A stretch of 20,000 bases of DNA, taken from an uncultured virus (IMG/VR IMGVR_UViG_3300001592_001590) (taxonomy: Duplodnaviria; Heunggongvirae; Uroviricota; Caudoviricetes). Under the pieces are notes generated by a model. It had not been told where the DNA came from, ran no database searches, and saw only the letters and a program-made list of their open reading frames with translations. The stretch is taken from the IMG/VR virus record IMGVR_UViG_3300001592_001590; one strand, given 5' to 3'. How positions within the stretch are numbered: the stretch's first letter is position 1; each line of letters begins with the position of its first letter. The translations under genes were made by a program, and so were the position numbers. Below, one piece after another: positions 1,929-20,000 of the stretch.

Positions 1929-1936
1929 GCTGGGGC

Positions 1937-3103: not shown

Positions 3104-3176
3104 AACGGGAAAAGGAGGGAGGTCTGGAGTGCGGGGAATGGCAGGGAACGGCAGGGAAACGGGTTCGTGAAGAACG

Positions 3177-3794: not shown

Positions 3795-3815
3795 GCCAAG
3801 GTGTAGCGCTTGTGG

Positions 3816-4469
3816 TTATCGCGCACGAAGCCGACCGTCGGCGTCGTACTTGGGGGTGAACTTAAACCCGTAGTCCTTGACCGAACGTGGGTAGGGCGTC
3901 CCCGTGGGACCCTGGCCTCGGTACGTGCCGATGCGAGGAGCCTTTTCCAGGCAGGCCTCGTAGCGGGGGTCCGCCTTGGCGCAGAGCACGCGCACGACGA
4001 TGTTGCCTTCCCCCGTTTGGGAAAAATTTTCCATGGTGCGCCAAGTGCCGGTTTGCCGCACTTCAATCACGTCCCCGCTTTTGAGCGCAGGCAGGTGGTC
4101 GGGAATGAGCGCCCCGGTTTGGAACAGGTACGAGCCCTCTTTCCAGACCCAGTTGCCCTGGCTGTGGTGCAGGTTCACCCGGGCCACCCGGTACAGGTAC
4201 TCTGGGGTGCCCTCCACAATGCCGTTGACGTAGAGAACATTTCGGCTCACCCTGTTGTAGCGGCCTGCGAAGTCCTCATCGAAGGCAATCATGGCGGCCA
4301 GGTGTCGCTCGCGCATGTCCGCCGGCAGGTCCTGCCCCATGTTGGCCACCGCATTGCCCACGTGGAGCATGGGAGACGCTCCGCACCCCGCCAGCGCGCC
4401 CGCCGCGCAGACGCCAGCCCACAGCGCCAGCTGGCGCAGGCCTCCCGATATGCCTCTAAAATTACGCAT
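3816..4469 (-). CDS. Putative lipoprotein of unknown function
   Basis: AAGGA RBS, N-terminal hydrophobic stretch ending in lipobox LAG-C. Confidence 0.75.
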   Translation of the reverse strand: MRNFRGISGGLRQLALWAGVCAAGALAGCGASPMLHVGNAVANMGQDLPADMRERHLAAMIAFDEDFAGRYNRVSRNVLYVNGIVEGTPEYLYRVARVNLHHSQGNWVWKEGSYLFQTGALIPDHLPALKSGDVIEVRQTGTWRTMENFSQTGEGNIVVRVLCAKADPRYEACLEKAPRIGTYRGQGPTGTPYPRSVKDYGFKFTPKYDADGRLRAR

Positions 4470-4563
4470 CTTATTTCCTTTTAACTAGAACATTTTAGCA
4501 TAGTGCAGGCCCGACGTCGAGAGGCTATACGCTTTAGGGCAACTTTTGGTAAGGGAAATTTAG

Positions 4564-5190
4564 ATGAAAGACTTAGGCTCCGCGAAGAATCGGCGCATCG
4601 TCGAGGTGTGTCGGGCTCGCCTGGCGCGCCTTCCCGTGGCAGGGCACAGCGCCTTGCGCTTTGACCCCTGGGTAGAGGGCTATCGCAACTACGTGTTTGG
4701 GGCTCGAGCCGGGCCCACGGTGTCGGTGACCTCGCTGTTTCACGAGCTGGCGCACGCCGCTCAGTTCGGGGCAGAAAAATTCCGCTACCGGGCGACAGAC
4801 CACGGGTTTCAGTTCAAGGTGCCGCGAAGGTTCATCTTCGACCGGTATTGCGATGAACCCCGCACGGGCCAAGCCACGCACCGTGAGCTTCAAACCTTTG
4901 CCTACCAGCTGCACTTGCTGCGCTTGGCTGGGCACAAGGTCGCCGATGAGCACTACATCCCGTATTGCGCCCGCCTGATGCGGTTCATGCACGACTGGTG
5001 CTTCATTCCCGGAAAAAGCGATGAAGCACGCGCGCGGTACTGCGCGCAAGTCATCGAGCGGGAATTCCACAGAGTGAGCGCCATGGAAGTCAGTGACCGG
5101 CTCGAAGGCTGGCTGGACGCCACCACCCGGCGCATGCGTCGAACCAAGACACCTCTGCAATCCCTGGGCGGCTACCTCGTTCAGGCCTGA
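4564..5190 (+). CDS. HExxH-motif protein (putative metal-dependent enzyme)
   Basis: LFHELAH motif plus a downstream Glu (HRELQ); AAGGG upstream; terminator downstream. Confidence 0.65.
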   Translation: MKDLGSAKNRRIVEVCRARLARLPVAGHSALRFDPWVEGYRNYVFGARAGPTVSVTSLFHELAHAAQFGAEKFRYRATDHGFQFKVPRRFIFDRYCDEPRTGQATHRELQTFAYQLHLLRLAGHKVADEHYIPYCARLMRFMHDWCFIPGKSDEARARYCAQVIEREFHRVSAMEVSDRLEGWLDATTRRMRRTKTPLQSLGGYLVQA

Positions 5191-5199
5191 TTTTGCAAC

Positions 5200-5225
5200 C
5201 CGCGCTCATTCGAGCGCGGTTTTTT
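5200..5225 (+). terminator. Intrinsic terminator
   Basis: CCGCGCTC-ATTC-GAGCGCGG followed by T6. Confidence 0.8.
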
Positions 5226-5284
5226 GTTCCCTGCGTTTTCGCTACACGGGGCATTGCAACGTTTGCCTTTAAGGACATCTCCCT

Positions 5285-5626
5285 ATGAACAAAAAAGAAC
5301 TTCTTCAACGCATTTTCCCTCAGGCCAGCGCAACCGTTCACGGGCGCGACGCCAGCGAAGTCAACGGGCTGCCCAAGGACACCGTGCCGCAGAACTGTGA
5401 CATCCTGGTCCGCGCGATTAACCGATGGGACGCTCAGCGCAAGCAAGAGCACTATCTGGTGCGTATCGACGGCGTGATGCTGTACCTTCGCGTGTGCACC
5501 GCCATGGCCGGCTCGGGCTACGACGAATACGCCGCCATTTTGCGGGTGTGCGGTCCCGAGGACAATCAGGCCGAGTTCGAGTCGCGCGTGCGTAGCTCCA
5601 TCGAGTCTATTTGCCGCGAGCGCTGA
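5285..5626 (+). CDS. Hypothetical protein, 113 aa
   Basis: TAAGGA RBS, ATG start, GC3-rich codons. Confidence 0.75.
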   Translation: MNKKELLQRIFPQASATVHGRDASEVNGLPKDTVPQNCDILVRAINRWDAQRKQEHYLVRIDGVMLYLRVCTAMAGSGYDEYAAILRVCGPEDNQAEFESRVRSSIESICRER

Positions 5627-5768
5627 GCCAGGCCCCAGACCCTCTTTCTTCATTCACCGGGACCGCTCATGCGGTCCCTTTCATTTGCATGCAGGTGGCG
5701 TCAAAAAGCCCCTCGTGGCGGGCCAGGAGGGGCTAGGAGAGGCCGGGAGGCCAGGGAGGTGGCCCGCT

Positions 5769-7377
5769 TCAGTTGGGGCTGCTCGGAGGCTTGGGGGTCG
5801 CGTCGCGAATCAAGGAACCTGCATTGTCCCGCACGAATTCCACCCGGTTTTGCTCGGTGTACTGGTCCACCCGAGGAATCATGCCGTTGGCGCTGGTACA
5901 CGATGCGAGCTTGGACTCTGGGCCGCAGTCCCCCATCACCGTTTCGCTGAAGCTGCTGAGCACCTTGTCGTTGCCCGGTGAGGCGGTGTGGAAGTCTCCC
6001 AAGGTGCGGGGGCTTTACCTGGGTCGTTTCAGCTTCTTGTTGTACTTGTCCAGGTCCTCCGGCTTGTAGATGCCCTTGTTGACCCGAACGTGACCCAACA
6101 GCACGGCAGGGCTGGCCGTAATCACCGAGCCCAGGTTGGCGCCGCCAATGACTGCCATGCTCAACCCCACATAGGCCGCTTCCACGGCCAAGGCGGACGT
6201 CAGCGAGGAGAACCCAGTCACCAGCCCCTGGTTGACCAAGAAAGTTCCGAAGGTACCCATCGTGGCACCCGTTGATGCCCCTGCGGTTGCACCCGTGCCC
6301 AGGCTCAGGCCCGAGATACCCGCTGCGGACAAGATGCCCGCCAAGGCGAAGCTGCCCAGCACACCCAGGATGAGCGCCCCCAGGAAGCTCAACCCGCTCT
6401 TCTTTTGGTAGTCGATTTCCCACTTGTCTTCGTGGTCGCTCAACGTGCCACCGTCAAACTCCTCAAAAGCTACCCCTGAGACAGCCGTCTCAAACCGTTG
6501 GCAATCGTCCCTGTCCGGGTCCGGCGCGCAAATGGCGGTGTACGTGTTCGAGGTCGAGCGCGACAGCACGTCCAAGGGCTGTGCGATGAACCACTTGGAT
6601 TTGGCATGGGCATACACCCAAGTCTCGATTTTCTTCTTGAACAAGCTGCTGGACTTCTTGGTGCGTTGCGACAAGCGGGTGTCCGCAACCGACACCAGAC
6701 CCAGAGGTGCCCCCGCCAAGCGCATGGCGTGCCCGATGGCCACCTGAGCGGCAGGCATGCTGATGTTCTTGAAGATGTCCGTTCCCGGCTCCAAGAAGCT
6801 CTGAAACGGGTTCACGCCGGCGGTCATGCCCGTTTTGTAGGAGTCTGGGTGGATATAGCTGCGGTTGGCCTTCCAGTGGTCCCCATGCGCGGGAGAGAAC
6901 ACCGCATGGTACAGCCCGGTTGTGCTTCCTTGGGCCGTGCGGCCCTTTTCCAGTTTGAACACGTCAATGCGCAAGGTGGCGTCCACGGGGTTGTAGCGGG
7001 CAAACACGTACGGCACGTTGGCGGGGAACAGGGTGTTTGCATTGGCCACGTCAGAGGCGCTCATGCCCAGGGCCAAGGCCGTGCGGTTGGCCAGCGAGAC
7101 GGCCTCGCTGCCGCCTTGGATGGCCGATGTGCCGGGGGTGGCCACTGTGGGCATGTCGGCTACCCGCTGCCACTGCAGCTTTGGATAGACCACCGGCACG
7201 CCACCGATTCGCACAGCGGCGCATCGGGCGTCAGTGCCTGAGTCCGCTGCGGCCGCGCTGCACGGGAAAGACTGGGCGTGGGCCAGGGAGGGCAGGGTGC
7301 TTGTGAGCACCAGGCTGACACTTACGACGGCGCTCAGCGCCCGCTTGACAGCGGCAGAAAACGAAATTGCGAATCAT
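5769..7377 (-). CDS. Large exported/membrane protein of unknown function (~530 aa, interrupted by probable sequencing indels)
   Basis: ORFs 6015..7310 and 5769..6002 are in the same frame. Removing one base from each of three short runs in CTGAAACGACCCAGGTAAAGC restores L-N-D-Q-V-S. ATG 7377 is one base out of frame with a signal peptide (...KRALSAVVSVSLVLTSTLPSLAHA). Long Gly/Ala-rich hydrophobic segment near the C-terminus. Confidence 0.7.
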
Positions 7378-7468
7378 TGGAGAGTCCCAGGTAGTCGGGT
7401 ATCCGCCGTATAGCGCCCGGGGCTATATGCGGGTGCTACACGCACTAAACCGCACTGAGGCTTGTTCC

Positions 7469-9497
7469 ATGTTCAAACTTTTCTCGACCCTCCTGGTCTG
7501 CCTGGTGGCAGTGGGCGCGCACGCACACGACCACCAGTCTCCCGTTCGCGTGACGCGCTCCAAGCAGCAAGGACGTGGCCTATGTCAGCCAGGAAGTCCT
7601 GCTGGCGGGCAGCTCCGCCACGTCAGTGTCGGTCGCGCCCCTGACGACCTCCAACTCGGGTTTTGGGCTCAGCCGCCTGTCCACCAAGTTCCCGGGCGCG
7701 CCGTTTGGCGCCATGCCTGTCATGTCCATCCCCAATCCGACCACGCAAACCGTGGCCCTGGAAGAAGCCGCGCGATGGGTCAAGGACGACTTGCCCGGGT
7801 TCCGTTCCCGCTATGGCGCTTGGCTCAAGCAAAAGGGCCTGTCCATGGGGTTTTTCAACTACACCCAGGAAATCACGGTCACCACGACCGTAGGCCCGAA
7901 GAAAAAGGCGGTGGCGTTTAACGCTACTTTTGACCTCAATGGCCGCCCCACCTATGGCAATGCCAAGATTGTGGACCCCGACCCGACCATCGTGGAGGCC
8001 ATGTACATTCCCCTGGCCACCGCCTCGGGCCTGCCCACGACCTGGAAGTATCCGGATGCGGGCAATATCAAGTGGCGCTTGCTCAATAAGAAGTACGAGC
8101 CATTGACCGGCTGGTTCACCGAGCCCACAGGGGGGGCCTTTGACACCCCAGAGGCCGACTCCACCTCTGACCAGGCGGTCAAGTGCCTGATGGACCTGCG
8201 CCACCCCGGTTGCTCGGGCCCGGTGGACATCCGCGCCCTCATGGACCGCGCCGGCGCCTCGTTTGCCATCGTCAACTACATCCGCAGCCTTACGCCCGTG
8301 TACGAAGAAGACGGCACGGACGAGCAGACCCCCAAGGCGGCCATCTCCGTGGACGAGCGCACCTGGAACTGCACCACGTACACCAACAAAGGCGCCTTTG
8401 GCTTTGTGCTCACGCTGATGGCGGACCAGTACCTGGCCGAGCCTTCCACGGAGCTCGTGAAGTTCCAGCTCTTGCAACAGTACGGGGGCAAAGGCGTGTC
8501 TCCCACCGAGCCCTATGAGAAATCCGTGCCCATCGCCACCCTGGCGGGCAAGCACCCGGANTCGGTCATCATCAGCCCCATGCCCGAGGACAACGCCNNG
8601 TGGCCCCGCTCGGACGCCAAGTTGATGAAGAACGTCATCTACGTGGCGCCCGTTATTGCCGTAGGCGGCAGCGGCGAAATCGGGGACGCTACTTTCTCCG
8701 GAGACATGACCGTGCGTCCGATTCCAGGCTCCGGCACCGACAAGGAATACTACATCGGCACCGTGGGGGACAACTACTGGGGCACAGGGCAATACGACCG
8801 CACGGTGAGCTTCAACCTGACCAGTCCCGAAACGTCCGAGATGTTCAGCATCGTCCAGACGGGCTTTGACGACCACATGCTGGTGGCGGTGAACGGCACC
8901 ACCGTGTACATCGGCGCGAACGGCGGCAACATGCTGGAGCTGGTGAACGGAACCCAAGAGCAGTCTTGTGTGCCCAATTCCGGCAGCTTTCTCTGCCAGT
9001 CCGCTTCGTCCACGTTCGTGACGCAGCCTACGACCCGCGAAGACGGAGACTGGTGCCCCGCAGGCACCCTCCTGAGCTCCGGGCCGCAAGGTGGTGGCTG
9101 CTACGCCACTACACAGCGCGCCTACAAATACTGCCAAGATAACACTTGGGGCGCCGACGGAGGCGGCGGCACCAGCTACACCTGTACCCAAGGTTGTGCC
9201 GCATCCATGGTGCAACATCTGTCCACTGGGGTGGGGTTTGGTCCGGGCTGCCTGCCCTTGGAGCGCGGCACGAGCTGGAACTTTCCGACCTCCATCGACT
9301 TGAAGCCCTACCTCAAGTCCGGGCCCAACGAAATCTTCATGCGCACCATCGTGGGCGGCGAAGGCGAAGGCTGGATTCGCGTGCGCACGCGCAGCTGCGG
9401 CTCCTCTTTGAACCTGGGCACCACCGCGCCTCCGCCGCCTCCTGGCACGGGCGAGGCTGGGGTGACGGACCGAATCAACGACGAGTCCAAGAACTGA
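7469..9497 (+). CDS. Secreted protein with C-terminal TraN-tip-like beta-sandwich domain (~675 aa, indels at 7518-7572)
   Basis: Signal peptide MFKLFSTLLVCLVAVGAHA at 7469 joins the 640-aa ORF through frameshifts. IGTVGDNYW, FDDHMLVAVNG, ERGTSWN, IDLKPYLK and VGGEGEGWIR resemble motifs I recall from IncC/SXT-type TraN. Confidence 0.6.
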
Positions 9498-9539
9498 GTC
9501 CGTGCCCGCGCCCTGCGGCACCGTGCAACGACCCTTCAG

Positions 9540-9564
9540 CGGCGCCCCGAGTGGGCGCCGTTTT
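9540..9564 (+). terminator. Intrinsic terminator
   Basis: CGGCGCCC-CGAGT-GGGCGCCG-TTTT after the 9497 stop. Confidence 0.75.
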
Positions 9565-9656
9565 CGTTCGTGCAGCTTGGACTGTGGCAGAGCGTTCCTG
9601 CCTAAATAGAGATTTTCAGGTGGTTGCTAAACAAAGAACAACCCATAGGACACATC

Positions 9657-10043
9657 ATGACCGCATCCAAGACCGCATCCGCCAAGAAGCCCGCTGCCAA
9701 AAAAGCGACCGCCCCCAAGGCTGCCGCAAAGAAGACCGGGGCCAAGAAGTCGGCTGCCAAAAAGACCGTGCGCCCGAAGGCTCCCGCCAAATCGGCGGCA
9801 GCCAGTTCGCCCACCGTGTTTTTGCACAAAGAAGCCTACAAGGCGTGCATGGACGGTCTCCTGGCACAAGGCCTGGACCGTGAAGACGCCATCGAGACGC
9901 TGAAGGTCGGCATCCGCCAAGCCAACGGCCGTCCTGTTCCCCCGGAGCTCCTGCGCTCCAACGGCGCCCCCGCGAAACAAGGCCAGGCCGACGTTGAACC
10001 GGTTCAAGCCGAACTGCCTGAGGCAGAGCTGGCCGAAGCTTGA
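9657..10043 (+). CDS. Histone H1-like Lys/Ala-rich protein, 128 aa
   Basis: AGGA RBS; N-terminal AKK repeats (SAKKPAAKKATAPKAAAKKTGAKKSAAKK), short helical middle, acidic tail. Confidence 0.7.
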   Translation: MTASKTASAKKPAAKKATAPKAAAKKTGAKKSAAKKTVRPKAPAKSAAASSPTVFLHKEAYKACMDGLLAQGLDREDAIETLKVGIRQANGRPVPPELLRSNGAPAKQGQADVEPVQAELPEAELAEA

Positions 10044-10048
10044 TTTTC

Positions 10049-10084
10049 AAAGACCGCGCAGCGTACCTGCGTGGTCTTTTGTTT
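10049..10084 (+). terminator. Intrinsic terminator
   Basis: AAAGACCGCGCAG-CGTAC-CTGCGTGGTCTTT followed by a T-rich tail. Confidence 0.8.
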
Positions 10085-10192
10085 GGTACGTCCTAAACGG
10101 GCAAGGCGCTCGCTCTAAACCCGTCTTGTTAAAGATGCCGGTTTGATTTAAACTGATTTGCGATACGGCAAGTCCTATTTAACCACCAAACC

Positions 10193-10738
10193 ATGCTCGA
10201 GTTTTTGCAGCAATCCAAACCTACCGCGGGCCCCGCGCTGGAAGAGCTTTCGCACACCGCTGCCATGCCTTGGCTGGTCACAAAAGTTAGCGAACCCGCT
10301 GACTACAGCGACATTCTGGAGTCGGACATCTGCCTGGTCTCCCTGGAGGACTGCACAACCGACACGTGGGGCTGCCTGGAGACTTGCCAGCTGTTTGAGC
10401 CCCAAGAGGTGCGCCGGATTCAAGACGACCTTACTTACGACGAATCCCATGTCTGCTTCTACCCTGTGGCGCTGCTCAGCCACGAGCAACCCTTGCAACT
10501 GGTGTTGGCCACAAGCAGTTCTGCGGCAGAACGCAGCCAGCTGGACGAGAAAACGCTGACGGAGCTGGCCGAGGGTCGGCTGCGCGTCTCCTCTCAAGCC
10601 CGAAAGGCCATGGGAGACGGGTATACCTCGTTTCTCACCGCTGAGCGAGGGGTCAGCCTGTTGGCCTTGATGGAAATCGCCTTGTCCGACCACGTGCGCC
10701 TGCTGGGCTGGGGCTGGACGTGGCATCGCAAAGCCTGA
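10193..10738 (+). CDS. Hypothetical acidic protein, 181 aa
   Basis: ATG start, coding-like codon usage, no recognised motif. Confidence 0.7.
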   Translation: MLEFLQQSKPTAGPALEELSHTAAMPWLVTKVSEPADYSDILESDICLVSLEDCTTDTWGCLETCQLFEPQEVRRIQDDLTYDESHVCFYPVALLSHEQPLQLVLATSSSAAERSQLDEKTLTELAEGRLRVSSQARKAMGDGYTSFLTAERGVSLLALMEIALSDHVRLLGWGWTWHRKA

Positions 10739-10888
10739 GGGGAACGGGAGCGCCTGGACCCCAGGCTAAACCAACCGGCTACAAGTTAAGCCTCAAGACC
10801 ATTTTCAATTTTTCAAGAGTTATCCCATGCCGAGCCGGCGAGCTGATTTTTCCCTACCCATCGGTGGCGCTGACTGTTCGGAGTTGAC

Positions 10889-11854
10889 GTGTTTCACAAG
10901 ATTAAGCAACGCTGGAGTGAACTGATGCTGGACCTCTCCGACCGCCATACGCCGCGGACCTTCGAGGCCCCGGCGGACCTTAGCGCCCCGTCCGTGGGCG
11001 ATGACATTCCTGTGCCTGGAAACCTGTACCGCCACTACAAGGGCGGGCTGTACCAAGTGCAAGGCCTGTGCACTATTGAAGCCTCGCAAGAGCAGGGTGT
11101 GCTTTACCAGGCGCTGGACCCCAACGCCCGTCAAGACGTGTGGATGCGTCCGCTGAGCGATTTCAGCGGCCCTACGCGAGTGGGTGGCATGCCTCGTTTT
11201 TCCAGCCTTCGCCATTCCACGCTGGAACCCCTGCGCCACTACTTGGCCCAAGACGTCCTCAACGACAGCGCGCTGCAAAGCATTTTGTCGCGGTACGACG
11301 AACCCTGGCGGTTTTTCCACGCCCGTCGGCACATCCTGGACATGTTCGAAAAAGCCCAGGAGCTGGGCATGGAGCTGAGCGCCGAGCAGTCGCTGGCGAT
11401 TTTGTTCCACGACATTGTGTACGTGCCTGGCGCCCCTGAGGGCCAGAACGAGCGCCAGTCCATTCTGCTGATGCAGGCCTTCAAGGGCCAAGTCCAGCGT
11501 GCGGAGACCGACTGGGCGCTGGTGGCTCGCGTCATTGAAGACACCATCACCCTACACCGCCAACCCACCGAGGCCGAAGCAAAAGCGGTCCTGGACCTGG
11601 ACATCGCCAACCTGGGGGACGACCCGGTGCACTTTTGTGCGTCGGACGAGATGGTGTGGCTGGAGAACCGGCACTTGCTGGAAGCCGCTGACGCTCGCAA
11701 GGACTTCGACACCCGTCGCCTGCGCTTTTTGCTGGCGCTGGCCAACCGCGGGCCGCTGTACCACACCAGTGCTCCCGCGCTGGAAGAATCCGCTCGCACC
11801 AATCTGGAAGGCCTGCGTCAGGCTTGGGTCCAGAAGTACGGGCCNACCCGATGA
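10889..11854 (+). CDS. DUF1653 domain fused to HD-superfamily phosphohydrolase-like domain
   Basis: LYRHYKGGLYQV...VLYQAL...VWMRPLSDF (DUF1653); RYDEPWRFFH...HI, AILFHDIVY, NERQS and LDLDIANLG (HD family). GGAG before GTG. Confidence 0.8.
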   Translation: MFHKIKQRWSELMLDLSDRHTPRTFEAPADLSAPSVGDDIPVPGNLYRHYKGGLYQVQGLCTIEASQEQGVLYQALDPNARQDVWMRPLSDFSGPTRVGGMPRFSSLRHSTLEPLRHYLAQDVLNDSALQSILSRYDEPWRFFHARRHILDMFEKAQELGMELSAEQSLAILFHDIVYVPGAPEGQNERQSILLMQAFKGQVQRAETDWALVARVIEDTITLHRQPTEAEAKAVLDLDIANLGDDPVHFCASDEMVWLENRHLLEAADARKDFDTRRLRFLLALANRGPLYHTSAPALEESARTNLEGLRQAWVQKYGXTR

Positions 11855-12474
11855 GGCTGCTCTGCGGCGTGGACGAGGCCGGCAGAGGCCCCCTGGGCCG
11901 GCCCCGTGGTCGCAGCTGCAGTCGTGTTTCAAGGCACACCACCGGCGGGCCTGGCGGACTCCAAAGCCCTGAGCGAGCGCAAACGCGAAGCCTTGTTTCG
12001 AGAGCTCACTGAGGGCCCCCACTTCTATGCGGTGGGCTTTGCCTCCGCGCAAGAAATTGACCAAGTCAACAGTCCTGCAAGCGACCTTCCTGGCGATGCA
12101 GCGGGCGGTAGCGGGCCTGCCCTGTGACCCCGCTTTGCTGGACGTCTCGGGTGGATGGCAACCGCAAGCCCCGATTCGCTCAGGTGGATGACGCGCAGGT
12201 TCAAACCCTCGTCAAGGGGGATGCCTTGATGGCGGAAATCTCGGCCGCCTCGGTTTTGGCCAAGGTGACCCGCGACCGTTGGATGCGCGAGCTGGACGTC
12301 CGATGCCCCGGCTATGACTTTGCCAAGCACAGTGGCTATGGCGTACCCGCACACCAGGCCAAGCTTTACGAGCTCGGGCCTTGCGAGGAGCACCGCCGCA
12401 CCTTTGCGCCGGTCAAGAAGTGTGTGCAGGAGCTTTCCCTGCGAGCTGCTCCGCAGCCGCTCTCCCCTGGTTGA
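11851..12474 (+). CDS. rnhB: Ribonuclease HII (three apparent +1 indels near 11895, 12071, 12146)
   Basis: GVDEAGRGPL/AGPVVAAAV, LADSKALSE, EIDQVN/VLQATFLAMQRAV, VDGN, VKGDA...ISAASVLAKVTRD, HSGYG, EHRRTFAPV. ATGA overlap with the upstream stop. Confidence 0.93.
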
Positions 12475-12487
12475 GCAGCCCTGTCGC

Positions 12488-12526
12488 CCATGCAGAAAGC
12501 CGGCACGAAGCCGGCTTTCTGCATGG
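12488..12526. terminator. Long hairpin between convergent genes (probable bidirectional terminator)
   Basis: Perfect 17-bp inverted repeat CCATGCAGAAAGCCGGC/GCCGGCTTTCTGCATGG with a 5-nt loop. Confidence 0.7.
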
Positions 12527-12557
12527 TAGCCAACCCCGCCACACGGGCGGGTGTGGG

Positions 12558-13434
12558 TTACTCGAGCACTTCCTCAGCGTGGGCGCTCAGACCGAGCTGC
12601 TGATAGATGGCCTTGGCCAAGTCCGTTGTAGCCGAAGAACGACACGCAGTCTTCGACACGGCCCAGCACCACCACTTCAGCCAGGTTCCGCTCGTTGAGC
12701 CACACCGACAAGCCTTCCTTGATGGCGACAGCCTTGCCCGAGGGCGTGACAAACACGCTGTACAGGTGTTGCCGACCTTGGCGCATGGTGCTTTGAGCGT
12801 GAGCTGCCAGCTTGCCCTTGAACCGCAGGTCGGCCTGGTCGTTGCGGTGGATGCGGAACCAGCGGTATTCGGCGTCCGCTGCGTCAACTTCGGCGGCTGC
12901 AGCGCCCTGCGCATCGGCTTGAGCGGGTGCGCTCGAGTCAGCGGCGGTGACGGCTTCGCCTTCGTCGGGCGCGCTGGCCTGGGCACCCGTTTGCACGGAG
13001 CTGTCGGCGTCCAGCTTGAGGTTCTTGAGGCCTTCGGCGCCCAGGGTCTTCTTCAGGTAGCTCATGACCTTGGCATGCAGGTCGGCGAACGCGCCGTCAA
13101 AGCGGGCGGCCATCAGCTTGGCGCCTTCAAAGGTGTGCTCTTGCGCTTTGCCGTCTGCCGTTTCCAGCTTCACGGAAACCTTCACACCGTCCTTGGCGTC
13201 CACGCGGGCGGGGACATGCAGACGGTAGGTGTTGCCGTTTTCGCTGACAGTCATTTGCAGACCGTCTTCTTTGGATTGACCGGCGGACCAACGGGTCAGA
13301 ACCGAGGTCTTGCCCAGAGTGAGCCCCATCTGAAGAGGCTGCCGCCCCGCGGCGTGGGCATTGAGGGAGTCGGTGAACTCGTGTTGAGCCTTCAACATGA
13401 GTTGTGCGAGATGGGTGAGGAGAGATTGAGACAT
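12558..13434 (-). CDS. Hypothetical two-domain protein (apparent +1 indel near 12623)
   Basis: AAAGGA RBS before MSQSLLTHL. The C-terminal domain (DLRFKGKL...VFVTPSGK...W.NE...FFGYN) continues as DLAKAIYQQLG...EEVLE in the adjacent frame, resembling a small phage/plasmid family. Confidence 0.7.
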
Positions 13435-13518
13435 GGCTATTCCTTTCAGGAATGAACGGGCAACCCTGGCCAGCACAGGAGCGCTCCACCGGAGTGCTAA
13501 CACCTGTAGTCAGTCCTT

Positions 13519-14118
13519 TTAAACCTGAGGGGGTGCGGTCTTCGCGTCGCCCGAGGGTGCCTGTCTTGGCCACCAGCAACGCAGCACTCGCAAGTCTCGG
13601 ACGTCGCGCCACTGGGCGGGGTAGCCCTGAGCACCCTCGGGCACCCGGGTGAACCCCGCCAACAGCTGAGGCACTCCCTCGGGGCTGTAGACCATCTTCA
13701 TGCCATACGCCACCGGCACCTTGCCCAGCCCCAAAGAGGCTGACATCTTGACCACCCGCTTTTCGCGCACGGTGAACCAACGCACCTGCCAAGCCAAGGG
13801 CACCCCCTTGTCCACGAAATGCGCTTCGAGCCAAACTGGGTTGATTTCTTCCACCCGGGTAGAGCCCAGTACGCTCGGGGCCACCATACCCTGAGGCGCA
13901 AAAACGCCTTGCTCGCTCAAGTCCAGCCGAAGGGCCGCAAGGGAGGGCGCCTCCATTCTCAAAGACTTTAGGTCGGAGGTATGTTGCAAGTCGATATGCG
14001 CACACAAATGGCAAAACGGCTCTGGCGCGGCGAGCTTAAGGTGCCGCCCCCACAAAGGAAAGAGGCTCTTTAAAATCTCTGCGCTTTGAGATTGAGAGGG
14101 GCGAGGGTTGGCCGGCAT
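13519..14118 (-). CDS. Hypothetical protein, 199 aa
   Basis: AGGAG RBS, ATG start, no recognised motif. Confidence 0.65.
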   Translation of the reverse strand: MPANPRPSQSQSAEILKSLFPLWGRHLKLAAPEPFCHLCAHIDLQHTSDLKSLRMEAPSLAALRLDLSEQGVFAPQGMVAPSVLGSTRVEEINPVWLEAHFVDKGVPLAWQVRWFTVREKRVVKMSASLGLGKVPVAYGMKMVYSPEGVPQLLAGFTRVPEGAQGYPAQWRDVRDLRVLRCWWPRQAPSGDAKTAPPQV

Positions 14119-14239
14119 CAGAACTCCTGCTAAGATGTGTGTTCTTAATAGAAAGCCGGTTTAGCATTTCGGGTTCTAATGAATACAGAGGGTCTAAATT
14201 GGCAGACTAGACGTAAGAACTTACCTTTCAGTAATCTAC

Positions 14240-14611
14240 ATGCCCTCCTCATTCGCACTCACCGGCCTGGATGAAACCCTGAGCCAACTATTGCGGGACA
14301 CGCAGACTGACGCGCTGGCATGCATTCATCGGGTGCAGCTATCGGTTGCCGAAGCACTGCAGCGCCAAGGGCAGGGTGAACGCCTGTCCCGATTGAGCCA
14401 TGCCGACATCGTGGAGTCCCTCCTCGTGAAGGCCTCTCGCGTCATCGCCCAAGACCCCACCTATGGTCAGCTGGCCCACAAACCCCTGAAGGAGAGCTTT
14501 CTCGAGGCACATCTTCGCGTGGCCCTGCTGGGATGGCTTGAAAGCCATGTGCAAGGTGCGTCTGAGCTCAAGGCATTGCAGGGCGCTCGCCGCGTGCTCT
14601 ACCAGCTTTGA
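14240..14611 (+). CDS. Hypothetical helical protein, 123 aa
   Basis: ATG after an AT-rich divergent intergenic region; coding-like composition. Confidence 0.65.
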   Translation: MPSSFALTGLDETLSQLLRDTQTDALACIHRVQLSVAEALQRQGQGERLSRLSHADIVESLLVKASRVIAQDPTYGQLAHKPLKESFLEAHLRVALLGWLESHVQGASELKALQGARRVLYQL

Positions 14612-14673
14612 CGTCCCCCTCGTCCCCGCGGACGGGGTGGTACGGAGCAGGGCGGACTTGCGCCGCCGTCTGT

Positions 14674-15279
14674 TCAAAACTCGAAGCTCTCGCCCACCAC
14701 AGGGTCGCTCAGGACGATGCGGCCCCGGCTGTCTTGCATCCAGTTGGTGGGCTGCACCAGGTCCAAGTGGTAGCCCGTCTCGCGCACGAATTTCTCCAGG
14801 CGGGTCAGAGCCCTGATAAGCTGAGGCTCCTGTGGCAAGTGTAGCCGGCACTGGCGCTTGAGCGCGGCCAACAATCGACGACAATACACCACCTTGTCGG
14901 GCTCATTGGGCACACTTTGGCGTGCTTGGCGATAGCACCTTAAAACCTGCGCCGCCTTGCGGGGCTCCAGCGGGGTGAGCCACTCCATTTCCAGCGCCCA
15001 CGCGGTTTTTCGACCTGAACGGGGCGTATCGACGCGAACCCGTCGGGTGCGAAACGTTCGAGGCAAGCCCGGGCAGGGGGCTGTCTTGAGTTGCTGGAAC
15101 AGCTTGGCCGTGGCGGGGTCCACGGTGAGCTTGGTTGCGTCACCTCCAGTGGATTTCCACACCCAGGCGTACGAGCCCTTGCCCACGGGGCGTGCGCCCC
15201 GCAGGGAGGCCTGAAGCCACAGGGGCGGGTCCAGGACCATCAGGGTCTGTCCTTTGCTTTGAGGGGCGCGCAGTTCCAT
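14674..15279 (-). CDS. Minimal protein-kinase-like protein (T7 gp0.7-like motifs)
   Basis: GKGSYAWVW glycine loop, ATKLT lysine, LEMEWL hinge, LDLVQPTNWM catalytic loop, IVLSDPV metal-binding motif. Confidence 0.65.
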   Translation of the reverse strand: MELRAPQSKGQTLMVLDPPLWLQASLRGARPVGKGSYAWVWKSTGGDATKLTVDPATAKLFQQLKTAPCPGLPRTFRTRRVRVDTPRSGRKTAWALEMEWLTPLEPRKAAQVLRCYRQARQSVPNEPDKVVYCRRLLAALKRQCRLHLPQEPQLIRALTRLEKFVRETGYHLDLVQPTNWMQDSRGRIVLSDPVVGESFEF

Positions 15280-15286
15280 CCCCCGT

Positions 15287-16834
15287 TTAGGAGACGGGTC
15301 TTAGCCCGGACCCGCAGCCTTGCCTCGAGGCAAGAAGGGCGCCCCTCAGAACAGCTGAGCCTGCTTTTGCTGTCGCAGCAAGGTTTCCCGCTGCCTCCAA
15401 AACGCCCGATTCGGGGGCTGCCTTGCCCTCCCGCAGCGCGAGTATCCGCTCCCGTGCTGCTTCTTGAGCAGCTATCAAGGAAACCAGGGGGTTCGGATAG
15501 GCGCCAGCACGCTGCGCTGCGGGCAGCTTCCAGGGCTCCTGGACAAAGGGTAGCGGCACTTGAGCCAATTCGGGTACCCACCTGCGGATGAACTCGCCAC
15601 GCGGGTCATGGTCCTGGGCCTGTTTGGTCGCGTTGTAGGTGAGCGGTCCGCTCAGGCGGGAAGTCCCCGCGTGAATTTGGAGCTGGTTCCAGTGGATTCC
15701 CGGCTCATAGTCCAAAAACTCCCGGGCCAGGTGCAGGCCCACTTCCGTCCAAGGCAACCACAGGTCGTTCACCGCAAAGGACGTGACCGTGCCGCGCAGT
15801 CGCATGTTCAGCCAGCCCGTTTGAGCCAGCATCCGCATTCCCGCATCGACCATCGGAAAACCGGTTCTGCCTTTCTTCCAGGCGTCCAGCCAGGCGGGGA
15901 TGCACTCTGCCTCTCGAACACCCTTGAACGCAGTCAGGTCGTCGACCGACTCAGACTCAACCTGCACCTCGAAGCTCTGCAGATAGGCGCTGCGCCAATA
16001 GAGCCGCTCCATGAAAAACTGTGCCGCGTCGTTCAACAAGGGGGAGTCCTCACTGGTCTGTAGCACGCCGCGCAAGTGCAGTATGACCTCCTGGTCCGAC
16101 AGCACACCGTGGCTGAGGTAAGGGGACAAGCGGGAACAGCCGCGCTCTGCCGTCAAGGGACTGGAAATCCGGGAGCGGTAAGCCAAAAGCTGTTCTGGCT
16201 GAAAGAAGGCCTCCAGCGCTTCAAGCGCCGCCTCTCGTCCACCTCTTTGCCGCAGGGGCTTGTCTTCGCCTGGGTGCCGGGGCGAGGGTCGTTGGCAGGC
16301 TTCTTCGAACAAGGCGGGGATAAGAGAGCTTGCGCAGGGCAGGGAGGCCGGAGGCACAAAGCTTGGGCGCTCAAGGCAGACTTGAACATGCCCTGCAAAA
16401 TCAAACGGCTCGCGTTTTCGGGCACTGCCTCGGCGAACCCCATTTTGGGGAACCTCAGTCCAGGGCACCTGGTTGCGCCGCGCCCACTGGGCAACCGCCA
16501 GGTCTCGCCGAAATTGCAGCATGCCGGTGGTTTCCTGGTAGGACCACAGGTGGGTGAGCCCATGCGCCTGGTGCAGGGCGTCCAGCGCCTCTTGCGCCTC
16601 CATGGTCAGCTCCAGCAAACGCGTTCCCCGCAGGGCCAGTTCCCCGCGCAGGCTGTCAAGGCATTCTTGGGCGAACGCCACATGTTGCGCACTGGTATCG
16701 GCGGCGCTAAGCCAAGACGGCTCGTGCACGTACAGAAACACCAGCGGGCCGTGGGATTCAACCGCGGCCAGTGCCTGGCGCAGAGGCTCATGGCTGTAAA
16801 TGCGCAGGTCTCGTTTGAACCAGATTGCTTGCAT
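15287..16834 (-). CDS. DNA photolyase/cryptochrome family FAD-binding protein
   Basis: IWFKRDLR, SRLSPYLSHGVLS, RLYWR, AWKKGRTGFPMVDAGMR.L..TGWLN.R.R, FLDYEPGIHW, QAQDHDPRGEFIRRWVPEL. The true end may be TGA at 15346 (...KQAQLF) if there is a +1 indel near 15406. Confidence 0.92.
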   Translation of the reverse strand: MQAIWFKRDLRIYSHEPLRQALAAVESHGPLVFLYVHEPSWLSAADTSAQHVAFAQECLDSLRGELALRGTRLLELTMEAQEALDALHQAHGLTHLWSYQETTGMLQFRRDLAVAQWARRNQVPWTEVPQNGVRRGSARKREPFDFAGHVQVCLERPSFVPPASLPCASSLIPALFEEACQRPSPRHPGEDKPLRQRGGREAALEALEAFFQPEQLLAYRSRISSPLTAERGCSRLSPYLSHGVLSDQEVILHLRGVLQTSEDSPLLNDAAQFFMERLYWRSAYLQSFEVQVESESVDDLTAFKGVREAECIPAWLDAWKKGRTGFPMVDAGMRMLAQTGWLNMRLRGTVTSFAVNDLWLPWTEVGLHLAREFLDYEPGIHWNQLQIHAGTSRLSGPLTYNATKQAQDHDPRGEFIRRWVPELAQVPLPFVQEPWKLPAAQRAGAYPNPLVSLIAAQEAARERILALREGKAAPESGVLEAAGNLAATAKAGSAVLRGALLASRQGCGSGLRPVS

Positions 16835-16899
16835 GTTCCGTATAGGCCCGGCGCTATACCCCTCAGAGCTCAAACAATGCAAACAGGAAGGAAATCGAC

Positions 16900-17415
16900 A
16901 TGAGAATCAACGACAACATGGTGTTGTTTTGGGGGCGCAAAGACATCTACTCTAACTGGCACCCCAGTCCCTTTGTACTGAAGGGCCAGCGCTACGCCCA
17001 CGTGGAGCAGTACATGATGGCCGCCAAGGCTCGGCTGTTTGGGGACACCGCGACCGAAGCCAAGATTCTGGCCACAACGGACCCCAAGCACATCAAGGCG
17101 CTGGGCCGCGAAGTTCGTGGCTACGTTGACGCCGTCTGGCGGGAGCACCGCTTGACGGTGGTCATCGAAGCGTGCGTGGCCAAGTTCTCCCAAAACGAGA
17201 AACTGGGCGCCATGCTATTGGCCACGGGTCAGCGCACTTTGGTGGAAGCCAGCCCCGTGGACCGGGTCTGGGGCATCGGGCTGGCGGAGGACGACCCCTG
17301 CGCACTGGACCCCGCCACATGGCGAGGAGAGAACCTTTTGGGCATCGCGTTGATGCATGCCCGGGACCACCTGGCCAAACAAGCCACACAGGGCACCACC
17401 GCCGAACTGTTTTAA
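16900..17415 (+). CDS. ybiA: NADAR (YbiA/DUF1768) family N-glycosidase
   Basis: YSNWHPSPF, EQYMMAAKA.LFGD, KALGREV, KFSQN, LVEASPVDRVWGIG, GENLLG; AGGAAGGA RBS. Confidence 0.93.
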   Translation: MRINDNMVLFWGRKDIYSNWHPSPFVLKGQRYAHVEQYMMAAKARLFGDTATEAKILATTDPKHIKALGREVRGYVDAVWREHRLTVVIEACVAKFSQNEKLGAMLLATGQRTLVEASPVDRVWGIGLAEDDPCALDPATWRGENLLGIALMHARDHLAKQATQGTTAELF

Positions 17416-17476
17416 CCCGTCATTCAACCTGGGCAGCGTCCGCGCTGTCCAGGTTTTTGTTTGCTCTCGCGCGGGC

Positions 17477-17516
17477 AAAGAGAAAGCCCCGCACGTTCAG
17501 GGAACGGGCAGGGCTT
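17477..17516 (-). terminator. Probable terminator for the 17556 gene
   Basis: Imperfect GC-rich stem AAGCCCTGC...GCGGGGCTT followed by TCTCTTT on the minus strand. Confidence 0.55.
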
Positions 17517-17555
17517 GAATTGGAATCATCGGTCAAGAGTGACCGGTGGCCGGCT

Positions 17556-18245
17556 TCAGGCTTTCGGCTCGGAGACGGTTTCGATGTCCTTGACCACGTA
17601 GCCGAGCCATCCCCACATCCACTCGTCGATGTCGGTCAGCTCGCACGCAGCAAGCATGGCCATCAGCGCAAAGCGTTCTGCGGGTTCACGCTTTTCGGCG
17701 CGGCCTCGTTTGTCGGTAGGGTCCTTGCTCAGCTGGCCCTCAAGGCTGGCGACCACCACGTCTTGGAGCCCCTTGGCCAGGACGCGTCGCGTCGGAGGAG
17801 CTTCATTGGCAAACTCGCTCGTCAAGTAGGCCTGGACCGCGTCCCACAAAGCCACTCGGTCGGCACTGTGCATCTGATGCAGGGCGTTCCAGGTGATGAT
17901 GCTTTGTTTGCTGTCCGCCAGCTTGCGAAGAGCGGTGTGCATGCATTCGCCCAGGCTTTCCAGCGCGTGCGGCTCCAGAGCTACAGGCACGTTGCCCTTG
18001 GAGTCCAGCCAAGCCCTCAGAGGAGGAAACTCAGGCCATTGCTCCTTGAGCAGGACGGCCAGCATTCGTTCTACCGTCAGGGTCACGCTCGCATGGAAGT
18101 GTCGAGACAGCACCTGGTCGTCTTTGTGCACTTGCATCAGCAAAGTAGGGGACTCTCGCTTGGAGGTTTCGCTCCAAGCATGTTTCGAAGGGGTCACCGA
18201 CCATGCGATGTTGTGCGTGCTCAGTGCTTGCAGCAGTGTGTTCAT
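17556..18245 (-). CDS. Hypothetical protein, 229 aa
   Basis: AAAGG RBS, ATG start, no recognised motif. Confidence 0.75.
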   Translation of the reverse strand: MNTLLQALSTHNIAWSVTPSKHAWSETSKRESPTLLMQVHKDDQVLSRHFHASVTLTVERMLAVLLKEQWPEFPPLRAWLDSKGNVPVALEPHALESLGECMHTALRKLADSKQSIITWNALHQMHSADRVALWDAVQAYLTSEFANEAPPTRRVLAKGLQDVVVASLEGQLSKDPTDKRGRAEKREPAERFALMAMLAACELTDIDEWMWGWLGYVVKDIETVSEPKA

Positions 18246-18314
18246 GGATACCTTTTTGTGGAGTTCAATTGCGCGCGATGGCGTGCTCGGTGAGCTTGGC
18301 CATTCGGCGACACA

Positions 18315-19092
18315 TCACTTTTTGGCTTCTTTGACGGGCAGGGGCAACTTGTCCAGGTCCGCAAGGTCACGGATGAAGACGTTCAAGTCTTGCAAGGTGC
18401 ACACCCCTTCTCGGCTGTAGTGGTTAGTGGTCGATACGACCTGCGCCGAGGGGAAATGCTGTGCGACCAGGGCCATCAGCAGTGCGCGGTTGGCATCGCT
18501 GTCGACCAAGGAGAGGTCTCGCTCCCCGGGCAGCTCGGTCAGCTCAAACCCGCGGTCTCGGAGGCTTTTGAGCCAATCTTCGTAGGTCACCTTGTCGGAG
18601 ACAGGGGACCGGGAGAGCAAACGTGGCCCAGCGCCAAACAGCATGCACGAGAACTGGACTTCCAGCGACCCGTACTGCGAGAAGCTCATCTTGCCGATGT
18701 GCCCAAATCCATGTTGGTCCCACCAGAGGTTGAGCTTTTCGCCCAGCACCGTCAGGTGAGCCTGCGTCTGGTGCGCGGAGCCCGTAAGCCCCAGCTGTTG
18801 CTCCAATTCGCGGACTTTCATGTTGGCCGCACAAAGGTCCGCATAGCGGGCTTCGCGGGCACTGGCGCTGTCCAGCTCGATGTCGAGCAGCGCGCACAGT
18901 TGCGTCAGGCGGGACTCTTTGAGGGACAGGACGTTGTAGGCCAACTCCAAATCTACCTCGGCTTTCGCCTTGATGCGCTCGGCAAGAAAGGCCATCGCGG
19001 TCAGCTCCTCGCGGAGCTCCTGGGACGCCACGGCGCGTTCGTCGTCGGTCAGTGTTTTGGTTTTTCCTGTCGTATTCTTGAGAGGGTCTCAT
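18315..19092 (-). CDS. Hypothetical protein with N-terminal coiled coil (apparent +1 indel near 19063)
   Basis: MRPSQEYDRK at 19092 joins TKTLTDDERAVASQELREEL of the 238-aa ORF if one A of an A5 run is removed. Confidence 0.7.
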
Positions 19093-19173
19093 TCAAAATC
19101 CTAAAAAGGTGGTCCTGTCTTCTATAGCCAAACAAGGATTTACAGCTTGGATTCGCTAAAATAGTTCTGGAGG

Positions 19174-19245
19174 CGGACATTAAAGTTGAGGACTGGGCTT
19201 CCCTCTAGAGAGTCACCTTCCCGAGGGGCACCCGGACATTAAAGT
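19174..19245 (+). repeat. 13-bp direct repeat CGGACATTAAAGT x2 (putative TnsB binding sites)
   Basis: Exact copies at 19174-19186 and 19233-19245, each followed 5 nt later by ACTG. Confidence 0.85.
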
Positions 19246-19544
19246 CCAGAACTGACCTGAGTAATGAATCCACGCATATCCTGCAAGACTTCAAGCGCTT
19301 GCTCAAATGCGCCTCTGCGCGTCCATGTGCGATGCGCGGTTGCTGCGTTTCGCCAGTCCCCCACCTTGTAGGTGCTCTTGCGCCAAGTCTCCCCCGTGGC
19401 GAGCTTACGCAGTACACCGTCGAGGAGGCTGCGCTGGCAGAGCTCATAGGAGTAGGCCCGTTTGCGGGCTCCCGCTAGGAGGGGGCCAATTGCTGACCAC
19501 TCGTCGTCGGTCAGCTCCAAGGTGCCGTCAACATGAGACGGCAC
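19239..19544 (-). CDS. DUF4096 (IS5-type transposase N-terminal HTH)-like domain, probably the C-terminus of the upstream ORF
   Basis: LTDDEWSAIGPLL...RSLLDGVL....TGETW...GDW.......W...GAFEQAL pattern. No RBS; in frame with the upstream ORF across one TAG. Confidence 0.65.
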   Translation of the reverse strand: MPSHVDGTLELTDDEWSAIGPLLAGARKRAYSYELCQRSLLDGVLRKLATGETWRKSTYKVGDWRNAATAHRTWTRRGAFEQALEVLQDMRGFITQVSSGL

Positions 19545-19550
19545 TGGCGT

Positions 19551-20000
19551 CTAAACTCTTTTGTTGAGATTTCTTCCTTTCGCCCAATCGCGGTCGAGGA
19601 ACGCAATCCGATGCTCGTGACCGACTACGGGTAGGTCGGGGTGTTCAGAGGGGGTAATCGAGAGAATTCGAGCCTCAGTCACCAGTACGGCGTTCGGCCC
19701 TTGAACCCCCGCAAGAACGACTTCGGCGTTGCAGTTGGCAAGGTCGAGGTCGAGGTGCCCCGCCATCGCATGGCGATGAACGCTGTCAGCCATTCTGCGG
19801 GCTGTAGGGTGGGAGGCCATCCAACGCAGTGGCCCGTGCCAACTACTGTGAGTTTCTTGCACAGAGGAAGTGGCCCACTTGGCGTCAACGACGATGTCTG
19901 CTGTGCCATTGGAGTAATCGAGCCAAAGAGTGCGCTCCAGCGCGCTAGGGCCGAACATTTCATGAAGCAGCTTCGGGGTCGGCCTAAAAAGCGCGCGCAT
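19551..20000 (-). CDS. TnsE N-terminal-region-like protein (partial, start outside window)
   Basis: RALF...SALERTL, LRWMASHPTARRMADSVHRH and VLVTE are collinear with the remembered Tn7 TnsE segments RSLF...TALQQEF, LVWLFSDQDVMDSYESIFRH and YLVEE. Transcribed toward the transposon end. Confidence 0.5.
   Translation of the reverse strand: MRALFRPTPKLLHEMFGPSALERTLWLDYSNGTADIVVDAKWATSSVQETHSSWHGPLRWMASHPTARRMADSVHRHAMAGHLDLDLANCNAEVVLAGVQGPNAVLVTEARILSITPSEHPDLPVVGHEHRIAFLDRDWAKGRNLNKRV

Follow-up and report, generated by a model that had tools for sequence, protein, structure and literature searches.

A Tn7-type left end upstream of a gene on a megaplasmid-like backbone and its comEC-associated relatives in Burkholderiales

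Introduction

Tn7-like elements are studied as programmable DNA-insertion machines, in which target selectors decide about the destination. In Tn7 itself the binding sites are spaced at the left end and packed at the right end. Tn7-like ends, TnsE genes located at the left end, the targeting of competence genes and an element that is led to comEC by a guide RNA (PMC9881144) are already known. In elements of the Tn6022 type a remote tnsE lies near the left end and far from the core genes, as described in excerpts of PMC10293859. Here we describe an end of this kind in a stretch of DNA of 20,000 nucleotides from an uncultured virus record (IMG/VR IMGVR_UViG_3300001592_001590), which is called the window in the following. 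An initial annotation, which was made from the letters alone, had placed a Tn7-like transposon end at its right side, in an intergenic site of a plasmid-like backbone. We consider it very probable that positions 19168 to 20000 are the left arm of an element from the prototypic Tn7 branch, which sits at a plasmid-like site other than comEC, would have arrived there in a TnsE-type manner and is now decaying.

The open papers that were searched revealed neither a protein-guided family that homes to comEC nor a Tn7 protein with a DUF4096 domain.

The left end at position 19168

The initial annotation described an 8-bp TG terminus followed by two 22-bp TnsB-like sites that are 59 bp apart. Direct reading and a repeat scan confirm this arrangement, which consists of the following features.

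19163 to 19167, no strand: AGTTC, the 5 bp outside the terminus and predicted target duplication; a contig of the public run X6 reads ...AGTTCTG here and then continues with unrelated sequence

19168 to 19175, plus strand: 8-bp terminus TGGAGGCG, left end read inward, based on the homology break with the metagenome contig L001, the TGG terminus of 6/6 relatives and the likeness to Tn7

19176 to 19195, plus strand: putative TnsB-type site 1, within the 22-nt repeat copy 19174 to 19195

19235 to 19254, plus strand: putative TnsB-type site 2, within the 22-nt repeat copy 19233 to 19254

Read from the outside, the order is AATAGTTC, or the longer GCTAAAATAGTTC, then TGGAGGCG, GACATTAAAGTTGAGGACTG, 39 nt, GACATTAAAGTCCAGAACTG and ACCTGAG. 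The repeat scan gave a single family with two direct copies of 22 nt, which are identical at 19/22 positions and start 59 nt apart. The exact 12-mer GGACATTAAAGT occurs twice, on the plus strand, and has no other exact copy in the window; with up to two mismatches there are 4 matches where 0.57 are expected. When the window was shuffled with a first-order Markov model, any pair of 22-mers with at least 19/22 identities within 22-100 nt was present in 1 of 200 shuffles. The unshuffled window contains three such pairs, including the one at the transposon end. The other two are located at 8850-8960 in an open reading frame (ORF) of 640 amino acids (aa) and at 9650-9760 in a histone-H1-like ORF (9624-10043); their spacing is 54 and 60 nt, and they are probably coding repeats.

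The likeness to Tn7 was determined with the Tn7 end sequences that are printed as primer parts in PMC1475584. The 31 nt from position 19168 are identical to the left-end terminus of Tn7 at 23/31 positions, and among all positions on both strands of the window 19168 is the top match for this 31-mer, with a runner-up of 18/31. Compared with the right end of Tn7, the terminus has 20/30 identical positions. Site 1 is 15/20 identical to the first left-end site of Tn7, and site 2 is 16/20 identical to its first right-end site. An inverted repeat formed by AGTTCTGGA and TCCAGAACT was rejected as a chance match, because half of its left arm lies in the flank and the flank of L001 is different. No Rfam family matches anywhere in the window.

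The boundary in L001 and in contigs of public runs

A scan of metagenome contigs with the site pattern gave three loci, L001, L002 and L003. L002 and L003 contain lone sites in unrelated contexts and were dropped as chance matches. The same pattern had no match in the genome-contig and viral-contig collections, and blastn of positions 17500-20000 against plasmids and phages gave none either.

L001 is 84.8% identical to positions 19167-20000 of the window over 879 columns. The homology ends exactly at 19167/19168: both sequences share TGGAGGCGGACATTAAAG, whereas the sequence to the left is unrelated. Since L001 runs into comEC at precisely this point, 19167/19168 is a true boundary of a mobile element. 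L001, which is the nearest relative of the window end, carries a third site 45 nt after the second one. Relative to L001, the window has lost 45 bp, and this deletion takes out site 3 and joins the end of site 2 to the sequence that follows site 3.

19247 to 19254, no strand: junction of the 45-bp deletion as given by the alignment, its position being ambiguous within the repeated AGAACTG

The initial annotation had found no convincing third site. That was correct, and the deletion is the reason for it.

Contigs of four public runs (X5, X6, X7 and X15) were placed on positions 17000-20000; the evidence is limited to run shares of at least 0.5 and to the covered parts of contigs. A 345-bp contig of run X7 contains the three-site end together with the 25 additional letters that belong to this form; before it stand 29 letters of comEC-like flank. 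Another contig of this run, with a length of 1510 bp, leads from the backbone (17868-19173) into the element; a further deletion of 59 bp, from 19173 to 19233, has left it with a single site. Copies borne by comEC and by the plasmid-like backbone therefore occur together in one sample. From run X6 a 257-bp contig covers 19141-19397, having just 27 letters at the left, which is below the 31-letter rule of the tool. Run X5 contributes two identical pieces. Altogether the junction was found in samples of three separate studies (the X5 pieces, X6 and X7). The boundary that the initial annotation put at 19168 is hence borne out by the break in L001, by the differing flanks and by the end beside comEC-like flank in run X7.

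A comparison with an empty allele had also been suggested. In a 201-bp contig of run X6 the backbone is followed without mismatch up to 19169, and 119 unrelated letters come next. This contig is a candidate for the unoccupied site and fits within 2 nt, where the shared TG could be due to chance.

Relatives in Burkholderiales genomes

By an alignment-based scan of species genomes, homologues of the gene next to the end (gene X, see below) were found at 5 loci among 29 pattern hits. The five genomes belong to Curvibacter, Rhodoferax, Ideonella and two Derxia. In all five a TnsA_N match lies 5.4-11.2 kb upstream of X on the same strand. According to ORFs and Pfam matches the gene order is tnsA-tnsB-tnsC (AAA_22/TniB)-tniQ (TniQ and part of TnsD), followed by X. 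The latter comes directly after tniQ in two of the five relatives and after cargo in the other three, in which one type of cargo each is found between tniQ and X: a Gabija-like pair, a Dam methylase together with a HerA-like ATPase, and QueC/deoxyribosyltransferase genes.

The encoded proteins match the solved proteins of E. coli Tn7, with E-values of 7.6e-84 for TnsB, 1.4e-69 for TnsC and 6e-23 for TniQ (380-409 aa) against residues 1-278 of TnsD. These matches are far better than those to the Tn6677 proteins, which places the family in the prototypic Tn7 branch. The relative loci that were read are free of cas genes, and a gene resembling TnsF was not seen in any of the five relatives. Together with the identity of 23/31 at the terminus, these tnsA-tnsB-tnsC-tniQ genes uphold the assignment to the Tn7 type.

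The ends of the relatives were located by a mismatch-tolerant scan with the site of the window. A comparison of the sequence upstream of tnsA with that downstream of X for inverted 10-mer repeats had revealed no ends, and motif scans of the 12 kb upstream of tnsA found no right ends; these turned out to lie 14-30 kb beyond tnsA. All seven left ends that were read (window, L001, L004, L005, L006, G004 and G005) begin with TGG in an 8-bp terminus. The sites follow at +9, +67/68 and +112/113 in L001, L004, L005 and G005, and at +9, +77 and +122 in L006, while G004 has them at +9 and +113 with a weak middle site. In the window they are found at +9 and +68. The right ends (G002, G004 and G005) all terminate with ...CCA (3/3) and have two abutting sites first. 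A short terminus, several direct sites of about 22 bp and a different arrangement at the two ends are hence all present, as in Tn7-like ends. The spaced sites at +9/+68/+113 mark the same end in the relatives and the opposite end has abutting ones, so that the designation as a left end holds.

The terminal trinucleotides are TGG at the left and CCA at the right instead of TGT...ACA. The initial annotation had already remarked on TGG in place of TGT, which now proves to be a trait of the family. As TGT/ACA termini are not universal in the Tn7-like family (stated in excerpts of PMC9881144), TGG is regarded as a variable feature and does not disqualify the end. The same excerpts report that asymmetric TnsB sites control the orientation of insertion.

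Outside the left end, L001, L004, L005, L006, G004 and G005 show one and the same comEC motif, ...GGCGA(C/G)CAG...GCCAT(C/T)..., at positions that lie within 6 bp of each other. In 5/5 genomes the DUF4131 and Competence parts of comEC are separated; the halves are 33, 42 and 51 kb apart on one contig in three genomes and lie on different contigs in two. The left end adjoins the 5' part of the gene, and the right end adjoins the Competence part, i.e. the conserved 3' part. The relatives accordingly occupy one attachment site and have the right end beside the recognised sequence, as documented by six left junctions and the X7 contig. Since comEC is split in every case, these strains (G001-G005) are presumably not naturally transformable through ComEC.

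The elements of the relatives are defence islands of 33-51 kb with the tns operon in the middle. In Derxia gummosa the site motifs are limited to the two borders of a 33-kb element, the right arm of which carries HAD_SAK_2, a second Gabija-like pair, two radical-SAM genes, a LexA-like gene and a DUF6471 gene that is divergent from tnsA. Gabija-like pairs (OLD-type ATPase and UvrD-like helicase) were observed as cargo in L001 (1553-4718), L007 (6266-9587) and L015 (2517-5643); TOPRIM is found in the pairs of L001 and L007, and none was seen in that of L015. Palindromes of the type TGTCAT(A/T)(A/T)ATGACA lie between tnsA and a divergent small gene, which is DUF6471 in Derxia (L012, reverse, ~1040-1170; L010, reverse, ~1085-1140). 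They are probably operators of the tns operon. In the element of Derxia lacustris a lone TnsB-type site (L008, 19775-19794) is found ~7 kb from the border; the true left end (L021, ~591,845 in the contig) is far away from it, and this site may be left over from an older end. A second TnsA_N match in Derxia gummosa (G002 contig C5, 51941-52186, L009) is on another contig and unrelated to the comEC element.

The gene next to the end

The initial annotation noted that the adjacent gene points toward the end, as tns genes do. Gene X does read toward the terminus.

19239 to 20000, minus strand: 3' two thirds of gene X (TnsE-like N-domain and DUF4096/IS5-type helix-turn-helix), which runs off the window and is a single ORF in L001

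19551 to 19553, minus strand: in-frame TAG by which X is interrupted; the corresponding codon of L001 is TCG

In L001 gene X is one ORF, and the protein has 352-363 aa. The window ORF 19239-19544 (minus strand), which is the C-terminus of X, matches DUF4096 with an E-value of 1e-11. At position 19552, within the TAG codon, runs X6 and X7 have G, and X5 has T as in the window. A large protein collection contains 58 homologues, all of which are unnamed or called "transposase" or "hypothetical". DUF4096 is C-terminal in 16/16 members and is their sole Pfam match. The NCBIfam model IS5_3 is matched by X only at positions 3-96 of its 258 positions, and neither Pfam nor NCBIfam revealed a DDE catalytic domain.

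Profile comparisons point to TnsE as a relative of the N-terminal part. With hhalign, X matches one TnsE of a Tn7-like element from IncF plasmids with an E-value of 1.2e-4 (probability 56%) and an alignment of 15 TnsE with 1.4e-4 (probability 53%), where X 78-213 corresponds to TnsE 110-260. As controls, the X and TnsE families were compared with TniQ, which gave E-values of 0.21 and 0.58. A hidden Markov model (HMM) of X scores 15/15 TnsE at 9.2-25.4 bits; the maximum is 3.7 for 750 shuffled sequences and -0.4 for reversed ones. In the other direction, 15 of 21 X sequences score above the best of 1050 shuffled sequences with the TnsE HMM. The top-conserved block of X, VPALALMRALFRP, aligns with the top-conserved block of TnsE, LPKFELARKLFFH, which would be the clamp-binding motif, as reportedly described by Parks et al. 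2009. A conserved motif in the TnsE N-domain binds the beta clamp, a processivity factor, according to excerpts of PMC4678854 and PMC5371812.

The C-terminal DNA-binding domain of TnsE, PF18623, is carried by 85 of 90 TnsE homologues among the matches listed, and a sequence-profile search with X against the PDB gave nothing relevant, including no match to the solved chains of the TnsE C-domain. Of the two parts of TnsE, homology was thus found for the N-domain and not for the C-domain. As judged from these comparisons, the N-terminal part of X is remotely homologous to TnsE, and an IS5-type helix-turn-helix (HTH) takes the place of the C-domain.

The AlphaFold model of X has a predicted local distance difference test (pLDDT) value of 78.8. 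Foldseek of this model against the PDB gave no match at an E-value of 0.001 or below; the TnsE chains in the PDB comprise only the C-domain, so that a fold match to the TnsE N-domain is not possible there. With VIA-align the top match of X 41-214 is PriB (4gs3_A, Z 4.6, root-mean-square deviation 2.6, 74 aligned), many single-stranded-DNA-binding (SSB) and PriB proteins follow at Z 3.1-3.5, and DnaA domain IV is matched by X 259-344 at Z 4.0; all of these values are below the level that the tool considers meaningful. The N-region of TnsE is described as PriB-like by Faure et al. in excerpts of PMC10293859. A search of the ESM Atlas for X gave no usable match. The predicted complex of TniQ and X has a score of 0.01 and weighs neither way.

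The megaplasmid-like backbone

1 to 19167, no strand: megaplasmid-like backbone that received the insertion, based on synteny with a Variovorax plasmid and on matches to plasmid records

18315 to 19031, minus strand (the same as X): first backbone gene outside the element, hypothetical protein of 238 aa with plasmid relatives

The insertion point lies 137 nt upstream of the GTG start of the 238-aa gene, and the flank is not comEC. It is the upstream region of a hypothetical gene, just as initially annotated, and a non-att insertion was rightly assumed: while the relatives reside in comEC, the window copy resides in an intergenic site of a megaplasmid-like backbone.

The 238-aa protein belongs to no Pfam family and has relatives on 185 plasmid records (tblastn). 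For the 640-aa ORF relatives were found on 28 plasmid records, 20 of which are conjugative, and on none of the phage records. A backbone ORF of 229 aa has no plasmid match. The viral-contig collection contains no relative of three backbone proteins or of X, and nine of 26 ORFs match PHROG families, all of unknown function. Plasmid 2 of Variovorax sp. SRS16 (801 kb) has a 26-kb stretch with matches to five of the 21 ORFs of the window, four of them in the same order and orientation and beside a gene for a type IV secretion system (T4SS) coupling protein. This synteny and the relatives on plasmid records support the designation as a plasmid-like backbone. By these sequence matches the backbone is related to megaplasmids of Comamonadaceae.

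Other backbone genes encode HAD_SAK_2 (1485-1928, minus strand), a photolyase (15287-16882, minus strand) and NADAR (16900-17415, plus strand). Another HAD_SAK_2 gene belongs to the cargo of the element in Derxia gummosa (L018, 2199-2741). The ORF 12124-12474 (plus strand) matches just the C-terminal half of RNase HII (104-198 of 199 in the Pfam model) and is either a truncated gene or has a miscalled start.

Discussion

In the mechanism that we propose, TnsB would bind the 22-bp sites and TniQ would recognise the conserved comEC segment beside the right end. In the manner of TnsE, X would guide TnsABC to plasmid DNA that is being replicated or conjugated, and plasmid targeting is what its TnsE-like nature would suggest. 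The window copy would then have arrived by a TnsE-type second pathway and not by TnsD-type homing. Transcription of X may run out of the end into the flanking gene, which is on the same strand. Afterwards the copy appears to have decayed, considering the nonsense codon in X, the loss of site 3 and, in one other sample, the loss of site 2 as well. The copy has probably lost the ability to move by itself.

Several points weigh against this view. The window covers just the first 833 bp of the element, in which neither a tns gene nor the right end is seen, and the copy could be a fragment. Its link to tnsABC is made through relatives, the X proteins of which are just 28-36% identical. As X is broken by a stop codon, it cannot act now in this copy. 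The hhalign probability for X and TnsE is just ~55%, and PF18623 was found in 0/16 X members at E-values up to 10. Full-length X is present on 0 of 72,556 PLSDB plasmids, which gives no sign that the X family is frequent on plasmids. On the side of the backbone, the five ORFs matched in Variovorax have just 39-62% amino-acid identity, there is no replication or transfer gene within the window, and the backbone could instead be a chromosomal island or an integrative and conjugative element. The relatives in which both ends are known lack a clean 5-bp flank repeat: ACGG (4 bp) is found in G004, CGG (3 bp) in G005 and none in G002. They are old insertions in a dead gene, so a decay of the duplication is possible. 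Finally, a backbone variant (X15 and one X6 contig) leaves the window sequence at ~19132-19141, i.e. 26 nt before the terminus, which indicates that the insertion site is a variable intergenic spot. The X15 variant sits on a 34-kb contig of organism A.

Among the alternatives, a mere relic survives best, although we regard it as somewhat unlikely. Here a solo left end and a broken X would have been left by deletion or recombination, and the arrival would perhaps not have been of the TnsE type. The nonsense codon fits a relic, and so do the loss of site 3 here and of more sites in the X7 contig, the visibility of the element only up to position 20000 and the absence of full-length X from the PLSDB plasmids. 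However, the outer boundary is exact to the base in comparison with L001 and to 2 nt in comparison with the X6 contig, as is expected of transposition and not of random recombination, and the junction recurs in samples of three studies.

It is unlikely, in our estimation, that X serves instead as a regulator or as a comEC-recognising partner of the short TniQ, comparable to TnsF for comM in Tn6022, the plasmid copy being then off-target or TniQ-independent. A partner role would suit the HTH, which looks sequence-specific and is present in all 16 members as DUF4096, the length of TniQ (380-409 aa), which matches only residues 1-278 of TnsD, and the position of X directly after tniQ in two of five relatives. 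The N-terminal part of X, however, is homologous to TnsE and not to TnsF or TnsD, and the best-conserved blocks of X and of the TnsE N-domain align; the latter domain holds the processivity-factor motif (excerpts of PMC4678854).

An IS5-family insertion sequence, or an element of the Tn5053/Tn402 or Mu type, that ends at 19168 is highly improbable. The adjacent ORF does match DUF4096 and IS5_3, and TG termini with multiple, repeated subterminal sites are generic to the MuA/TniA/TnsB group. The IS5_3 match comprises just 3-96 of 258 positions without a DDE domain, however, and the gene lies inside a Tn7-type end; the relatives also encode TnsA, which Tn5053 and Mu lack, and among the solved homologues those of Tn7 are by far the best matches to their TnsB and TnsC. 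Practically untenable is the idea that the repeats regulate the flanking gene 18315-19031, e.g. as operators. They do lie upstream of this gene, and the near-palindromic site 2 (GGACATTAAAGTCC, with a minus-strand match) could speak for such a role; the same terminus and sites, however, stand beside comEC in L001 and X7 with unrelated flanks, homologous site arrays end six other elements, and the identity to Tn7 is 23/31.

Beyond the Tn7-type end itself, we tentatively suggest, at somewhat less than even confidence, that X descends from a TnsE, of which it has retained the N-terminal domain, the region in contact with the replication clamp in Tn7, while the C-terminal DNA-binding domain has been exchanged for the DNA-binding domain of an IS5-family transposase. 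The family would then be a comEC-homing, defence-island lineage of Tn7 in Burkholderiales with a remodelled second pathway, and the window its natural megaplasmid product. If this is true and the HTH is sequence-selective, X would be a hybrid selector that combines the sensing of replication with the reading of sequence, unlike TnsD, TnsE, TnsF and Cas-guided selectors.

As a TnsE-type gene beside the left end is a known layout and the present copy seems degraded, the value lies in the family and not in this insertion. A protein-guided home site in comEC, in a lineage near prototypic Tn7, can now be tested. The same applies to a short relative of TnsE in which the DNA-binding domain has been exchanged, so that the roles of the two TnsE domains are naturally set apart, and to the window itself, which documents the rare case of such an element in nature at a non-att site of a megaplasmid. 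Competence genes are recurrent homes of elements that carry defence genes.

Comparison with known systems

Tn7 of E. coli uses TnsD for insertion at attTn7/glmS and TnsE for insertion into conjugating plasmids. The family described here shares with it the 8-bp terminus and the 22-bp TnsB-type sites, in the relatives also the spaced left and packed right ends and homologues of TnsB, TnsC and TnsD, as well as a fifth, TnsE-related gene after tnsD. Two kinds of target, a conserved gene and a plasmid-like non-att site, are common to both. In contrast to the TGT termini of Tn7, TGG is found here, and the attachment site is inside comEC, which is inactivated, and not downstream of glmS. The tns operon has an internal position between stretches of defence cargo and is preceded by a DUF6471 gene. 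X has ~350 aa and an IS5-type HTH instead of TnsE_C, and the clean 5-bp duplication of Tn7 is not seen in the relatives.

The Tn6022/AbaR-type elements, which target comM by means of TnsF and TniQ, also insert into a competence gene and inactivate it. As in these, a divergent TnsE gene adjoins the left end far from the core in the window and in L001. The target is comM there and comEC here, and the TnsF-like gene was not seen in the five relatives. Following excerpts of PMC10293859, tnsE of Tn6022 is on the opposite strand, whereas X is on the same strand as tnsABC-tniQ in five relatives. The C-terminal domain of X is another difference.

The cyanobacterial type I-B CRISPR-associated Tn7-like element, as far as excerpts of PMC9881144 describe it, shares the home in comEC and ends other than TGT/ACA. 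It is directed by a guide RNA (att-spacer) and occurs in cyanobacteria, whereas here a TnsD-like TniQ is present, no cas genes occur in the loci read, and the hosts are Betaproteobacteria.

The Tn7-like tnsABCDE element of IncF plasmids (L024 and L025) is a natural TnsE-bearing element on enterobacterial conjugative plasmids, and its TnsE is the source of the first hhalign match to X. In L024 (7175-14798), which is from an IncF plasmid of E. coli, tnsABCDE is flanked by a RelE/ParE pair on one side and by the heat-resistance genes hsp20-clpK on the other, and three CATCCGTATAAATAAAGT-type sites stand in tandem at the right end, upstream of tnsA. In contrast to X, the TnsE of L024 and L025 is full-length and comprises PF18623, and their TnsB is 30% identical to that of the relatives.

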